DNA of 64,000 nt from Eledone cirrhosa (taxonomy: Eukaryota), in the NCBI GenBank assembly GCA_964016885.1, contig OZ024740.1, positions 164,424,001 to 164,488,000 on the forward strand. The letters are read 5' to 3'. The notes beneath the pieces are model-generated. The model did not search any database, had not been told where the DNA came from, and saw only the letters and a program-made list of their open reading frames with translations. Made by a program: the position numbers and the translations under genes. This document shows positions 10,835-64,000 of this stretch, piece after piece. How positions within the stretch are numbered: the stretch's first letter is position 1; each line of letters opens with the position of its first letter.

Positions 10835-11289
10835 GGGTATCAAAAAATAATTATGGTATATATATAGGTCTCTACAAGTGGTAGGAGAGAGTGGGGAGTG
10901 GGATGGGTGTAGGTCATTGGTTGACAGAATTCATTAGAAGCTAATTCAACAAAGCTATAGTTTATTTTTATTTTTAGAGTAACAAAGGCAGGAAGAATTC
11001 TATAAACAGGTTCAGGATGGCATGCCAATCCTTATTAAGCTAATAGGTGTCTATAAAATCAGTGGGGGTCAGTCACGGTAGATAGATTTAAAGGAAAGGG
11101 AAATTCTTAAAAGCTAAATTCTTTACTAAGTGACAAGGTTTAGAGAATTCTGTAGACAAATTCAAAATATTGAGTGCATATCTTACTATTGTCGTCAAAT
11201 TTCTCTTAAACTATTCAACTATATGCCAAAATTAACAGACACATTCACAAAACACACTCACTCATACACTCGCGCGCACCCATAGACAC

Positions 11290-12570
11290 ACCCACGGCTG
11301 AAATTAGCGACCTTGTGGGCTTGTACATCCTACATCAACTGAAGAACCTATTTACCGGCCTAACCGGAGGTTTATACCGAGACGACGGCCTCTTTGCCCT
11401 GCATAGTGTTAACCCCAGGACTACTGATGGGTTTCGGAAAAACTTAAGCTCTTTCTTCTCTAATCTAGGATTTAGTATAACTATAGAATCTAATATGACT
11501 AGGGCCAACTTCTTAGATGTCACTCTCGACCTAGATACTTCCCTCTATTACCTGTACCACAAACCTAACGAGTCCCTTAGATATATTAACGTTAATTCAA
11601 ACCACCCCCAAAACATCACTGATAACCTTGTAAAAAGCGTCTCTATTAGAATATCTGGCCTCTCTGCCAACAAAGATATTTTTAACGCATCTGCCTCCTA
11701 CTACAATGACGCCCTCGCTCGCAGCGGATTTAAAGAAAAGATAACATACTTAGAAACCACCGCAAGATTGCAGAGGAGGAATAGACATAGGCAGATTAGC
11801 TGGTACAACCCTCCCTTCAATAGAGAGGTCTCTACCCCGATAGCTAGGATTTTGTTCACTTTGCTGAAATTACACTTCCCCGAACAACATGGGAACCACA
11901 CCATCCTTAATAAGAACACAATAAGACTCTCCTACTCCACCACACCTAACCTAGCTAGGAATATAGCCAACCACAATTCTAAAAAATTAAATAAGCCAAC
12001 CACCTCCGAACCCAATCCCCGGACTGGGGCGCTGTGTAATTTCCTAAATAAGGAAGCATGCTGCCTTGAAAACAAATGCCTCACAAATGATATCGTATAC
12101 AAATGCGATGTCATCTCAGGCACCGATGATTGCAAAAAAACTTACATCGGCAAGACCTCCAACAACTTTAAGACCCGTTGGTATGCCCATACCCACTCCT
12201 TCAGAAGACCGGACAAATCAAACCAGACAACACTCGCCTCCTATGTTTGGGACCTCAAAAGGAACTCCACCCCCCTCACACTTAAATGGAAAATACTCCA
12301 GAAAGCGCGCTCTTACAACGGAGGACACAAAGGGCTGCGACCTCTGTATCTCAGAGAGCTACGAAATTTTATTCGCCAAGGGCCCGCTACTGAACAAACT
12401 CTCTGACCACTGCCCGAACTGCATGCACAAGAACTTTGCAACTTTCAAACACTTTAAGCCAGTGTTAAAGCCCGATGGCTAAAAACGACTGCCCCCTATT
12501 GGCCCTTATTCCTCCTTACCACCCTACCCCCACCCCTCCTCAACCTGAAATACGGCCACTATGGTTATGT
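11290..12570 (+). mobile_element. 5'-truncated Penelope-like element (Hydra-clade-like RT + GIY-YIG)
   Basis: ORF 11315-12406: GLYRDDG, NFLDVTLDL, YHKPN..YINVNSNHP, WYNPPF, IVYKC..YIGKT..FKTRW..H, LKWKIL. After a frameshift: CDLC..E..LLNK....NCMH. Confidence 0.9.
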
Positions 12571-12949: not shown

Positions 12950-13770
12950 CACATCTCTCCTCTTCCGACCATCGCTTCATGGAATACTCGCACGCAGAAA
13001 TTGACGACCACAGAATCCACTAAACACCTTTGGATTTTACCAACTTTTCAACCATCCTCTTACGTAATCACCTATATAACTCACCCACACACACACCCCA
13101 AAAACATTTTTTTCTCCACACGCCACCTACACCCACAACACGCTTAAACCCCACACACACACGTGCTTTCCACCACATATTTACACCCTCAGCCTCCTGA
13201 TTCCTCTCCCCCCACCCCCTATCCACACACGCACAGACACTCCGACCCACAACCCCCCCCCCACACACACACCTACACCTCTTCCTGAACATGCAACCCC
13301 GTTCTTCCCCCAATCCTTACTTTCACATACACACACACACACACACACGTACACCTACACACACAAACCACCTTCAGCCCTCCCCGCTCGGACACCCCGT
13401 CTCCCTCTCCCCACTCCACCCGCCACCACCCCTACACCCCCACACCCTTCCACCACCTGTTTTACACCCCTTTAAATTTCATTTTATTTTGATCATGCTT
13501 TTATATTTAAATTTATTTCATTCCTTGTATTTTGATCATGCTTTATTTTTATTTTTATTTTTATTTTTTTCATTCGCACCGTTTCCTTTCGCTATATGTC
13601 TCTCCACCACTCCCCCACACACCCTTTGAACTCTGTTCCCACAGACTTCCCACCTGAGGAAGGGCTTATGCCCGAAACGTCGTCCCCCACCAACACCCCA
13701 CTCTCCTGAGCGTGAAATTAATAAACATTCGTTGTACTGCCTCTCTGTTTTGTCCCTGTTCAAATGTTTC
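12950..13770 (+). mobile_element. Probable PLE 3' fragment ending in a hammerhead, AATAAA and (TA)n
   Basis: Non-coding C-rich segment, HHR core at 13654-13684, aataaa at ~13720, then (TA)n. Confidence 0.5.
13644..13684 (+). ncRNA. Minimal PLE-type hammerhead motif
   Basis: CTGAGGA-A-GGGC ttat GCCC-GAAACGTC (palindromic ACGT helix III). Stem I not clearly formed. Confidence 0.7.
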
Positions 13771-13856
13771 CATTATATATATATATATATATATATATAA
13801 ACAAATAACGAAACGAAATTAAATGTGAGTTACAAACGAAAATGTACATCTTTAAC

Positions 13857-39605: not shown

Positions 39606-42251
<2,646 letters not shown>

Positions 42252-42580
42252 GGTGGCTTCTAACTGTTAATAGCTCAACTACGGGAGCTCGAGTATACAC
42301 AGTTCGAGAGTAAACCAATCTTAAAGAGAGAGATGGAGATAGGAGAAGAGAGATTGGTGAAGGTGTTAGAAGCCAAAAGCGTAAAAACATGTGCTCGATG
42401 TGCAATATGCAGTGGAAGGCAGCTAGAGTGCTGGGTTCATGTAGAGATTAGGTGCACAGAGCTAGAAGTATTCATTAGTTACGCAAAACAAGACCAAGAC
42501 CACAAATTGACAAGGAAGACGTTGCAGTTTAATGTAAGGAATAAGGGGTGTAATTATAGTTTAATGTAAGGAATAATAAT

Positions 42581-57180: not shown

Positions 57181-57731
57181 CATATATACATACATATATA
57201 TATGAGGGCAATTCATAATACATGGTATAATATAATATATTTGCCAAGATTAGGTACTCCGTCGTATCAAATGTTATTTACCATGACATTGGGGCGACCA
57301 ATGTCTATTGAGTGACAGTGGGTAGATGGACACTGTTTCAATGTTCATAGAATGAGCTACATCAGTTATTCAAGGCCAGCCTTCTGCTACCCTGTGTTAC
57401 TTTGAATTACCGCGAATTATTTTAAGGGTACATGTTTTTGGAATGCTCAGTCACTTATGCGTTAGTTTCAGTAGTTTTTTGTTTACTTATTAGTATCGTT
57501 CTTCTTCCTTCTTCTTCTTCTTCTTCTTCTTCTTCTTCTTCTTCTTCTTCTTCTTTCTCACATACTTCTGTATATCTCACTAACGTTTTCGCATTTCCTC
57601 TCTGTGTGTTAAGCCTCGTTATGTCAGCATGTTTGTCTCTGAATTTATGTGTATGAGGTTACGCATGAGTTTGTGTGCATGTGTGTGCAAGTGTGTGTGT
57701 GTGTCTGTGTATGTGTGTGTGTGTGTGTGTG

Positions 57732-57825
<94 letters not shown>

Positions 57826-58157
57826 CGCGTGCGTGTGTGTGTGTGTTGGATGTATTCACTTTGCTCTTTAGAATGCAGATTAGTCACATATGGATGACAT
57901 TTGCATAGATGCCGCTACAAACGTTTTGATTGAACTACGGACTATTTCAGTCTGACATCGTGTGGAGGAACCCAGTAGGAAAAGCAGAAAAGATTGGCAA
58001 AAATATACATATAGACAATCATAAAGACACTTACACAACCATATACAAACATGTACGTACACTCAGGCAGCTACACATACACATACGTCCTTAGAAACTT
58101 AAAGAGTTTTCATCTCCGTAGAAGTAATGGTCTGGTGTTAACCCTAATTGCTCATTC

Positions 58158-58246
<89 letters not shown>

Positions 58247-58456
58247 TGTATATATATATATACATATATATATATATGAATGTATATATAGTGTTTTGCA
58301 ATACACTGTATGCTTAATTAAAAGCATTTCGAAGACCTTACGCTATTGTTTTAGAGTAGTGACAGTCTCACTTACTTTAAATTTTCAGCAAACAGGGGAG
58401 ATAAAGCTGACAGAGCTCTGTTTCATACTGATTGGTACTTATCAAAGCCAAGTATC

Positions 58457-59480
58457 CAGATGCATACATATGCTAGCAAATATATAGGTTTTGTCTTAGT
58501 AACTTTGTGGTTCAATGCAAGGGGATGCAGAACAATTATATGAAAGACGTAAAATAAGAAAATTATAAAAATAAACTTACTAAAATTTCACTCCAACTAA
58601 TTAGTTTCTGAAAGGGAATAAACATGGTTTCCGAATGGGACACATGGAGAAGGCCTTTCGTCATCAGGAAGTCTGTTCTCAGCTAAGTTCCCAGGCAATG
58701 CGTGGACACAAGTAGGCAGTGATTTTTTCAATGTCTTGGAATTTAGTCCACGCTTGCTTTTTTCCATCCACTGAATTATTTTTGTATAAGTTCCCTGTGT
58801 CCACGCATTGCCTGGGAACTTAGCTGAGAATAGACTTCCTGATGACGAAAGGCCTTCTTCATGTGTTCCATTCGGAAACCATGTATATTCCCTTTCAGAA
58901 ACTAATTAATTGGAGTGAAATTTTAGTAAGTTAATTTTTATAATTTTCTTATTTTACGTCTTTCATATAATTGTTCTGCATCCCCTTGCATTGGACCACA
59001 AAGTTACTAATACAAAACCTATATATTTGTTAGCATAGGTATGCATCTGTATATATATGTTGGTAGATATACTAATTCTTTATAATTATCTCCAAATTAT
59101 TTTGTTGAGCGAAAATTTGCCAAAACTGCTACTATAGTTCATAGTAATAGTTCGGCTACTATCTTCTTAACACCCCACTCCTCACTGATTAACCTCGATG
59201 TCACGTGATTGATTCTTTTGAATTTGCCACCGACCAAGTAGGCAGTGATTTTTTCAATGCCTTGGAATTTAGTCGACGCTTGCTTTTTTCCATCCACTGA
59301 ATTATTTTTGTATAAGTTCCCTGTGTCCACGCATTGCCTGGGAACTTAGCTGAGAATAGACTTCCTGATGAAGAAAGGCCTTCTCCATGTGTTCCATTCG
59401 GAAACCATGTTTATTCCCTTTCAGAAACTAATTTTAGTAAGTAAGTTAATTTTTATAATTTTCTTATTTTACGTCTTTCA
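58457..59480 (+). mobile_element. Non-coding element: 526-nt unit, direct repeat and 254-bp inverted arm, three stem-II-less hammerhead-like cores
   Basis: 58457-58710 is inverted at 58796-59049, and 58709-58965 repeats at 59235-59480. CTGATGA-N-GAAA-GGCC-TTC at 58839, 59365 (+) and 58667 (-). Confidence 0.85.
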
Positions 59481-60984
<1,504 letters not shown>

Positions 60985-61033
60985 ATTATGTATATATGTA
61001 TATATATGTATATATATATATATATATATAGTG

Positions 61034-61222
61034 AGGTCGCGCGTGGCTGAGGAGTGGTAAGAGAATTGGATTCGCAATCATGAGGTTGTGATTTCGAGTC
61101 CTGGACCGAGCGATACCTTATGTCCTCGAGCGATGCGTTGTGTCCTTGAGCGATGCGTTATGTCCTTACACTGGAAACTTTGTCTGCATGACTCTGGGCA
61201 CGTATTTGGATAAGACACTATT
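61034..61222 (+). mobile_element. Second tRNA-derived SINE family with internal ~21-bp triplication
   Basis: tRNA-like head (GTGGCTGAG.AGTGGT, TTCGAGTCC), then three copies of gagcgatgcgttrtgtccty and later aagacact. Confidence 0.65.
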
Positions 61223-61467
61223 CTCCTGCTGATGCTGAGAAACTGAAATTTCCTTATTTGTCCTCCCGGCGCGGATTCCAAGAAGAATTCAGTGTCTCTT
61301 CCACAAATGTGGAGGTTCAAAATTATTCATAATCAATTATTCTGAAAATAAATAATGGAAATATATTCACTGTTTTTATGAAGAGAAGAGTGACAACGGA
61401 AGTAAAAAAAATTTGTATAAAATTAGCAGTTGAAAATTGCGAACAAATATCATCCTCACCCTGTATA

Positions 61468-62210
61468 TATATATTATAACTGAATATAAAAGAAAAACGA
61501 ACACAGACATATACATATATGTGTTCAAATCGTAAGGGACCAGATTTGAACACATATATGTATATATCTGTGTTCGTTTTTCTTTTATATTCAGTTATAA
61601 TATACGGCTTGGAAAAATCTCTTTCCTAGAGCTATTTTATTGTAAGAGACTATTTTGAGTTTCGAACTCAATATATACCTTTGATATATTCGGCTCCGTT
61701 AATTTTTAAGCTAATTCAAATGTCGAGTAAACCTGGCTGCTCTTTTTAGTGGTGTGAGTTTGTGAGACACGCTAAGTTCTGATACCATGTGATTTATTAT
61801 ATATACGCACACTATTCAGTTGTTTAATATACTTAGAAGTGGCCAGGATACCAATAATTCTTCATCCGCTGATGAGCAAGAATTGGTATTCCCCTTCACA
61901 ATTAATTTTGCGAAACAGCATTATCAAAGCTGTCCGAGTGATTGGTAGTTACCACAATTCCGGTTTGTATTTACTTTCTTGATTTATTCTTAAATTGAAT
62001 CTGGCAAACAGTATTGTCTATAGTTTTTGCCAGACTCACTATTGTCTATAGTTAGTATTTTTTTCACCTTAGCGAATCTGGTCCCTTACGATTTGAACAC
62101 ATACGTGTATATATCTGTGTTCGTTTTCCTTTTATATTCAGTTATAATATACGGCTCGGAAAAATTCAGTTATAATATACGGCTCGGAAAAATCTCCTAT
62201 TGTAGGAGAC
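61468..62210 (+). mobile_element. Non-coding hammerhead element: 547-nt unit with direct repeat and fold-back 5' end
   Basis: Palindrome 61468-61604. 61543-61621 repeats at 62090-62165. Canonical HHR at 61862-61941. Confidence 0.85.
61862..61941 (+). ncRNA. Canonical type-I hammerhead ribozyme
   Basis: TCATCCG-CTGATGA-GCAAGAATT..AATTTTGC-GAAA-CAGC attatcaaa GCTG-TC-CGAGTGA. Intact core, GUC site, stable helix III. Confidence 0.9.
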
Positions 62211-62250
<40 letters not shown>

Positions 62251-62537
62251 ATAGAAAACGAAAAATCAGTGATGCATTTGAACTCAATTTATTGTGAGTT
62301 ACAATTGTTTCGCCGGCGGCCAGCTCGAGACGCGTTCATTGTGTGGATTTGTCTGATTCTGGAGCCGCAGGTTCGACGGACACATCTAATGATTTCGGAG
62401 CATATTCTCTGTAAGAGCATAGAGTGCTCAACCGGCATACCGCCTATGGAAGCATCTTAGTTACCATCAGACACACACACACGCACGCACACACACACAC
62501 ACACACACACAGACACACGCACACACATACACACACA

Positions 62538-62632
<95 letters not shown>

Positions 62633-62662
62633 GTGAGATTTTTTTACAAAATGAAAACGAAC

Positions 62663-62943
62663 CGAGGTGTCCTACACAAGTGAAAGTATAAGGAAAAAAG
62701 ATGAAATCTAAAATGCAACTGGAGTCTTTTTTTTATAAAAATATATATTTATTTGGGTCCTTTACCGGTTTCGCAGTTCTTCTGCTTTTCAAAAGTAGAA
62801 TTGAGATGGAGGTTTTGTGGTTTTCTCACATCTACTTTTGAAAAGCAGAAGAACTGCGAAACCTGTAAAGGAACCAAATATGTATATATTTTTTATAAAA
62901 AAAGACTGCAGTTGCATTTTCGATTTCATCTTTTTTCCTTATA
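62663..62943. mobile_element. Second fold-back element of the TTGAAAA-hammerhead family
   Basis: Near-identical to 10404-10701 but with a different centre. HHRs at 62760-62795 (-) and 62835-62870 (+). Confidence 0.85.
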
Positions 62944-62974
62944 TATATATATATATATACACACACAAACACAC

Positions 62975-64000
62975 ACAGACATCCGATGGGCACGAAAGAA
63001 GCCCCCTCATACACCAACCTTGTCATGAGATATTTGAAAACCACTCTCTACTGCAAAGTTCTCGAAAAATACGGCAATGCCTTCTACCAACACATAGAAA
63101 AGAACTGGAAGAGATATCTGGACGACTGCTTCATCCTCTCCCATGAAAGTATAGATAGAGTGTTTGAGTTTAAAACCCTTCTGAATGGACTCAACACAAA
63201 CTTACAATTCACAATGGATTACAGCCATGAACAACTCCCTTTCCTCGACATCCTCAAGAAAAGAAACAACAAAATAGAAACAGACATATACTACAAACCC
63301 ACAGACTCCAAACAATACCTCCCATTCAACTCGTGCTACTCTAGTCACACCCAAATGGCAATTCCTTATAACCTAGCCAGAAGGATCTGCACAATAGTTT
63401 CAGATAAATCCACATGCTACACACGACTAGAAGAATTAAAAACACACTTATCAGCAGAAACTACCCACCATCCCTAATCAACAATGGATTCCAACGTGCC
63501 CTAAAACTCGACATAAAGGAACTCAGACACCCCAAACCCAGGAATGAACCGCAACAAAAACCTCTACCATACATCTCCACACACAACCCCCTCAACAATG
63601 AGGCATTCGACACCATCCTCCAGAACATTCCTTTACTAAAAAGAGACCCAAGAATGAACAAAATCCTCCAAACACACAACATCATAAAGAGCAAAAGACA
63701 ACCTAAATCCATAAAAAACATCCTCACACAAGCCAAAATCCAACGAACCCTTACAATAAACCCTACAGTAAGGCCCAACTGTGGCATATGCATAAATCTA
63801 ATAGAAGGTTCAACATTCCATTTTAAACAAGGACAACATTTCACAGTTAAACACAACTTTACATGTGCATCTGAAAACCTAATCTATGTGTTGACCTGCT
63901 CAGGTTGTCTGACTACATAGGACAGACAAAAAACAGCCTCCGTCCACGTATGGCCGTCCATAAATCATAAATTAAAATACAGGAATACAGAAAAATTGCA
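62975..64000 (+). mobile_element. 5'-truncated Penelope-like element (Neptune-like), running off the window end
   Basis: MGTKEAPSYTNL, WKRYLDDCF, LPFLD, YYKPTDSKQYLPFNS, IPYNLARRI, FTCASENLIYVLTC..C..YIGQT. Confidence 0.9.

Follow-up and report, generated by a model that had tools for sequence, protein, structure and literature searches.

The 64,000-nucleotide window, that is, the whole stretch of DNA analyzed here, consists of animal-like DNA that is rich in microsatellites and contains several decayed retroelement frames. Within these 64 kb, the pattern CTGATGANGAAA gave three matches against a chance expectation of 0.03, and none of 100 shuffled sequences reached three. Each match carries the hammerhead core boxes CUGAUGA and GAAA separated by a linker of one nucleotide, which is C at 58839-58850 (plus strand), A at 59365-59376 (plus strand), and C again in the inverted copy at 58656-58667 (minus strand). 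Both boxes, CUGANGA and GAAA, are thus present and exact in all three copies, while stem II with its G10.1-C11.1 pair is absent from all three, the linker being only 1 nt long. Over the 112 nt that they share, the copies differ at 3, 4, and 3 positions. The arrangement given in the preliminary description, namely, three CTGATGA-N-GAAA cores with two direct copies 526 nt apart and one inverted copy, is therefore borne out, although the three matches are not independent, since all of them lie inside one insertion. The same holds for the AGGCCT palindrome (58850-58855, plus strand), which directly follows the core on its 3' side in all three copies; this sequence, initially taken for helix III, is not conserved among the stem-II-less relatives. 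The proposed UC/UUC cleavage site did not stand: the published consensus for Penelope-like elements (PLEs), GAAAN-palindrome-NUH, would place CUU rather than UUC at this position.

The three cores sit in a noncoding insertion of about 1,030 bp, in which an inverted, 5'-truncated piece is followed by a 526-bp unit, half of a second unit, and a (TA)n tract. The inverted copy (58453-58710, minus strand; 258 nt corresponding to 58796-59053, 96% identity, 11 differences) is joined head-to-head, with a 2-nt overlap at 58709-58710, to the full 526-nt noncoding unit (58709-59234, plus strand). This unit is directly repeated, 58709-58907 and 59235-59433 being 97% identical at an offset of 526 nt. The partial, pseudo-LTR-like second unit (59235-59484, plus strand) stops at a 3' end that recurs in the family, and the (TA)n tract at 59481-59530, the likely insertion target, marks the 3' end of the insertion. 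On both strands, the unit folds more stably than shuffled sequences (z = -3.3 and -3.0; 40 shuffles). Fold prediction places a long hairpin upstream of the core (58776-58833, plus strand), in which family variants keep or add pairs at 58788 and 58796 and give a mixed picture at 58793/58816.

The hallmarks of PLEs described in PMC8557442 are a partial tandem, an adjoining inverted 5'-truncated copy, and a (TA)n target, and PLE hammerheads have been reported in pairs on opposite strands, 100 to 700 bp apart (PMC4209133). The insertion displays a pseudo-LTR formed by the partial tandem, a neighboring inverted 5'-truncated copy, and a (TA)n or AT-rich target with a recurrent 3' end. The 3' ends of the family lie at about 58969 and about 59053-59084, 85 to 115 nt apart, compared with a PLE tail extension of 30 to 40 bp. 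An open reading frame with RT and GIY-YIG domains was not found in the unit, whose longest stop-free stretch in any frame is 76 amino acids, so that the unit is at most a nonautonomous PLE derivative; no autonomous partner sharing its sequence was found within the 64-kb window. With non-LTR retrozymes, the insertion shares the noncoding tandem unit of a few hundred nucleotides but not the complete type I hammerhead in consecutive units. By analogy, the element appears to behave like a nonautonomous PLE derivative or a retrozyme.

Other elements of the window also carry hammerhead-like motifs. A second noncoding element of the same layout occupies 61470-62165, with an inverted piece at 61470-61546 and direct repeats 547 nt apart; no homology to the stem-II-less element is detectable, as 92 of 100 and 72 of 100 shuffles scored as well. 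At 61869 it contains a type I hammerhead that appears complete: its stem II region spans 37 nt, its stem III has 5 bp, and a GUC site lies at 61933-61934. The pairing of this motif was reached by only 1 of 200 shuffles, and the motif is a better ribozyme candidate than the stem-II-less cores. At 13654-13683 lies a typical PLE minimal hammerhead, with a stem II of 4 to 5 bp, an ACGU palindrome, a 2-bp stem I, and (TA)n nearby downstream. A 52-nt sequence occurs with 94% identity at 59533-59584 and 13774-13824, in both cases inside the (TA)n downstream of two different hammerhead-bearing elements. Two identical, inverted hammerhead-like cores at 570 (minus strand) and 3462 (plus strand), about 2.9 kb apart, enclose RT-like frames at 598-2448, and this region may represent a complete PLE that has decayed and has inverted ends. 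Finally, a long, near-perfect, MITE-like inverted repeat lies at 62740-62930, where matches to microRNA-like hairpins stayed below the threshold.

A Pfam search with seven frames of the window left five without a match and gave one RVT_1 match, as well as a weak GIY-YIG match for frame 11210-12403 (E value of 8e-4, below the curated cutoff). The frameshifted frames 62899-63920, 11210-12406, and 39606-42266 resemble PLE RT/GIY-YIG proteins by their motifs, and Atlas look-alikes with HTH_animal/RVT_1 were seen for 62899-63474. Rfam reported no hammerhead in 57500-64000 or 59235-59440, but since the control motifs at 13654 and 61869 went unreported as well, this negative result carries no information. 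Scans of sequence collections returned no family members: there were 0 and 0 matches in metagenome contigs, 1 in genome contigs, and 21, 8, 0, and 0 in viral contigs, and none of the 30 matched loci has more than 24 nt in common with the unit, as expected by chance at the level of the pattern.

Ten public runs, none of those listed being an RNA run, contain part of the unit, X8 to X10 having a small share, and the family was surveyed in the contigs of four of them (X1, X4, X6, and X7), which represent four species labels and three studies; X1 is possibly the source sample, and two studies remain when it is left aside. The repeat family is high-copy and noncoding, with 3,052 unit-matching contigs in X1, 54 in X4, 37 in X6, and 9 in X7. 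Joints of a unit end to a unit start were present in X1, X4, and X7, and loose ends in (TA)n at 58969, the equivalent of the end of the second unit in the window, in 18 X1 contigs and 1 X6 contig. Between 58837 and 58851, the summed contig depth falls about 24-fold in X1 (from 118,985 to 5,015), and past 58847 the drop is 3- to 8-fold in the other runs (from 90.5 to 21.3 in X4, 31.3 to 4.1 in X6, and 13.3 to 5 in X7). Contig depth is not copy number, and the resulting share of 4 to 38% for the stem-II-less form is a rough guide. Loose ends begin right behind 58847 in nine X1 contigs and one X7 contig and behind 58852 in one X4 contig, and the deepest X6 piece among those listed ends exactly at 58847.

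Past CTGATGA-C-G, contigs of three of the four runs (X1, X4, and X7) run into an AT-rich hairpin. A bulged C and a G precede this hairpin in the loose ends, in which about 35 nt of extra sequence are visible. By eye, the X4 loose end contains exact reverse-complement arms, TATAGTTA and TAACTATA, flanking a short loop, and the loose ends agree with one another, sharing an 8-bp perfect inverted repeat whose inner pair is either U-A or U-G. The published PLE hammerhead consensus reads CUGANGA-H-G...C-GAAA, that is, a bulged H, G10.1, helix II, and C11.1 ahead of GAAA. Its H and G10.1 fit the C-G of the family, and its C11.1 stands before the G of GAAA, so that CG would flank stem II on both sides. 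Judged from these sequences, the hairpin following 58847 is likely the missing stem II; we infer the closure of this stem, since no contig in the four runs joins 58847 to 58848 with letters in between. The likeness of the extra letters to 59074-59089 (14 of 16 positions) is within chance (4 matches versus 6.65 expected). To the right of the joint, the depth in X1 climbs gradually (3.5k at 58864, 18k at 58870, 93k at 58885, and 200k at 58909); the majority form probably differs further to the right too, and the event at the joint may have been something other than a clean deletion. Elsewhere in the unit, one X4 contig omits about 80 nt (59102-59183) and other runs show divergent sequence ahead of 59171-59199, which suggests subfamilies with other unit lengths.

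The form without stem II is a minority, yet it is not local. Among the 32 pieces listed (with 3,161 further pieces), 10 bridge the joint without an insert and with at least 31 letters on either side, namely, 5 of 8 in X1, 2 of 8 in X4, 1 of 8 in X6, and 2 of 8 in X7, and each of them carries 10 to 27 other letters. The preliminary description had considered that all other copies might have a normal stem II, the deletion then being local; the finding of stem-II-less contigs in all four runs contradicts this. At least two divergent haplotypes can be told apart among these contigs, one resembling the window and a second with about ten linked changes, common to X4, X6, and X7 and rare in X1. The depth step, the loose ends, and the consensus point to 58846-58847 (plus strand) as the putative deletion joint, the CG there being what would remain once stem II is lost. 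The palindrome is disrupted in deleted copies by C58854A in 13 X1 contigs versus G58851T in 3, and base 58854 is absent from 7 contigs of X1 and 1 of X4; G58851T alone was seen in X4 and X7, and one X6 contig retains the palindrome by two compensating changes. No change in the core boxes was found among the 40 variants listed (with 92 further), except that one loose end has a tolerated change at U7.

We consider it likely that the window copies are dead deletion derivatives of a PLE-like repeat that were copied onward, probably by a PLE reverse transcriptase acting in trans. This reading builds on the tandem unit, the inverted 5' piece, the (TA)n 3' end, and the absence of an open reading frame, together with the fact that two forms of the family part ways right after CTGATGA-C-G. 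The longer form would be the ancestral hammerhead, in which a bulged nucleotide and G10.1 lead into a long stem II with C11.1 as its closing base. A polymerase, either a reverse transcriptase or a DNA polymerase, would have slipped between the CG before and the CG after the hairpin, and such a slip would leave exactly CUGAUGA-C-GAAA, as in the window. The deleted RNA would have remained a template, since the joint is common to all three insertion copies and to divergent contigs of four runs; as a minority deletion is shared by all three insertion copies, their template most likely already lacked stem II. The stem-II-less RNA is predicted not to cleave, because a linker of one nucleotide is too short to span from A9 to G12 and stem I is missing. 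The exact boxes in all three copies and the absence of core changes among the listed variants run counter to this reading, as does C58854A, which would improve an upstream stem III. That the deleted form was retrotransposed, we infer from the architecture of the insertion rather than from target-site duplications.

The earlier suggestion of a deletion derivative that still spread thus agrees with the contig data, in which the majority runs into the hairpin and a stem-II-less minority occurs in all four runs. The accompanying claim that this would show cleavage to be dispensable is weaker than stated, since this had been shown in vitro for a PLE (PMC11167929) and Naiad PLEs proliferate, as reported in PMC8557442, without canonical hammerheads. 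Catalytically dead hammerhead mutants left the insertion of the Anolis PLE in vitro unaltered (PMC11167929), and eight of nine predicted retrozyme dimers of Xenopus did not cleave (bioRxiv 10.64898/2026.07.22.740005), so that it comes as no surprise to find an element spreading with a dead ribozyme. Overall, the feature is real and most likely a decayed variant of a known system.

Alternatively, only intact RNAs might serve as templates, and repeated skipping at the same CG microhomology, either in reverse transcription or afterwards in DNA, might remove stem II each time anew and leave the deleted copies as dead ends. We regard this as unlikely. It would account for deleted contigs in at least two haplotypes, and one of the markers that define the second haplotype, an additional C behind 58837, reaches a depth of 8,636 in X1, more than the total bridging depth of 5,015, which hints that intact counterparts exist. 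However, all three insertion copies are deleted although the depth share of this form is only about 4 to 38%, and three independent losses are unlikely. It is possible that the deletion arose several times independently, and recurrent skipping and onward copying can coexist, with several origins each of which then spread.

Somewhat less probable, in our view, is that most copies have a longer insert, or a junction of another kind, in place of a simple stem II after 58847 and that the repeat spreads at the DNA level, in a satellite- or rolling-circle-like manner, rather than as a PLE passenger. The gap closed by no contig and the slow rightward recovery of depth are consistent with such a scenario, as is the fact that the unit has no open reading frame and shares no sequence with any PLE found in the window; unequal crossover has been proposed for the local tandem growth of retrozymes (bioRxiv 10.64898/2026.07.22.740005). 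In contrast, the divergence begins exactly at G10.1 and the visible letters form a hairpin, while the clustering of 3' ends at one (TA)n position and the inverted 5' piece, a PLE hallmark, also speak against this scenario.

We also doubt strongly that the core is an active ribozyme without stem II, be it as a dimer, with the assistance of a protein, or in a type III fold via an upstream site at 58736; it is equally doubtful that a stem-II-less hammerhead has been maintained across species by cleavage, with an upstream partner and either an element protein or an intact sister copy. Both boxes are exact in all three copies, the stem-II-less form recurs under four species labels, and one PLE hammerhead is reported to need its protein to cleave (PMC11167929), but the linker and the palindrome are variable. 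Within 21 nt past A15.1, there are seven UH sites in the first direct copy and six in the second, all with zero stem I pairs, and only site 58872 offers three stem I pairs with just two stem III pairs; the same scan recovered the proper site for the motifs at 13654 and 61869. The preliminary description called an adjacent stem I not obvious; it is in fact absent, and nothing pairs beside the palindrome. If the palindrome or a dimer is invoked, cleavage requires a pair between C58838 and the nucleotide following the site, a pair that is formed at none of the UH sites within 21 nt, and dimerization is no remedy because both monomers present identical strands. Dimeric minizymes require pairing linkers, and linkers of C/C or C/A cannot pair, which disfavors a dimer. 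The extreme minimal dimeric ribozyme initially envisaged is hence not supported: the palindrome provides no stem I, the linkers are noncomplementary, and in many deleted copies the palindrome itself is broken without compensation.

The candidate upstream partner (58733-58748, plus strand), which would provide stems III and I in a type III topology with U16.1 at 58736, is not above chance. Site 58736/59262 gives the best anchored pairing in the unit, with a predicted stem III of 4 bp and a stem I of 3 + 4 bp, and by eye C58854A would extend stem III to 7 bp. However, 59 of 200 and 33 of 200 shuffles reached this pairing, whereas the control at 61869 was equaled by 1 of 200 and that at 13654 by 14 of 200. 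Forcing the type III fold costs 10 to 20 kcal/mol over the free structure, in which both boxes are predicted to be paired into a helical rod. A noncircular permutation (PMC10085705) was rejected, since both strands of stem II would be one identical nucleotide. Our literature search, which did not extend to Lunse et al. 2017 and Long and Uhlenbeck 1994, found no natural hammerhead without stem II or with a 1-nt linker in its core, only engineered cases. Going by their sequence, the window copies would qualify neither as a hammerhead ribozyme nor as an active retrozyme.

It is very improbable that stem II is missing only through an artifact of sequencing or assembly, for although polymerases can skip strong hairpins and several bridging pieces are only 2 to 6 deep, the identical joint occurs in three diverged copies, one of them with an altered linker, and in contigs of three studies together with linked haplotype changes.

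Among known systems, the minimal hammerheads of PLE pseudo-LTRs (Cervera and de la Pena 2014, PMC4209133) resemble the window copies in their CUGANGA and GAAA boxes, the bulged nucleotide after A9, the short palindrome past GAAA, and the tandem and opposite-strand copies 100 to 700 bp apart. All 56 aligned in that publication have helix II and an adjacent helix I, whereas the window copies lack both, and the apparent intact stem II of the family is longer and AT-rich compared with those published. Non-LTR retrozymes, which are nonautonomous PLE derivatives (PMC7229834; bioRxiv 10.64898/2026.07.22.740005), are likewise noncoding tandems without an open reading frame and with one core per unit, and the size of our unit falls within their reported range of 51 to 972 bp. 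Those described there as active carry, in each of two consecutive units, an entire type I hammerhead, which the window insertion lacks; the inverted 5' piece of the insertion is PLE-like. PAc, a Poseidon element of Anolis (Frangieh et al. 2024, PMC11167929), shares AT-rich targets and internal 3' ends with the insertion, and its insertion in vitro is independent of ribozyme cleavage; PAc is, however, autonomous and has an intact, protein-assisted ribozyme, whereas the window case is a natural deletion without an open reading frame.

Engineered minizymes (PMC544870) and maxizymes (PMC10766806) also have helix II removed between A9 and G12 but differ in having linkers of 4 to 5 nt, one G-C pair plus a linker, or, for maxizymes, a designed heterodimer, along with full stems I and III. 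In the Naiad PLEs (Craig et al. 2021, PMC8557442), the "HHR_core" sequences are likewise core boxes without fitting stems, and these elements also have (TA)n targets and an inverted and tandem layout and spread without a canonical ribozyme. Naiads encode a protein, whereas the window unit has no open reading frame, and the spacers searched for in that work (7 to 17 nt, or 35 to 50 nt for half cores) leave a 1-nt spacer outside their range.

The role of hammerheads in PLE transposition is described as open (PMC8557442) and has so far been addressed only in vitro (PMC11167929). If the deleted form did cleave, its junction would be smaller than that of any other natural hammerhead and would parallel, in nature, the engineered maxizymes, and the structural minimum of natural hammerheads would need revision. 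The preferred reading, that of dead derivatives copied onward, adds no new ribozyme class, and its worth, which is modest, lies in offering a natural test of PLE hammerhead function. If it is true, ribozyme-bearing and ribozyme-dead forms coexist in several related genomes, and the family could serve to test, in the genome, whether PLE hammerheads aid transposition or merely ride along.
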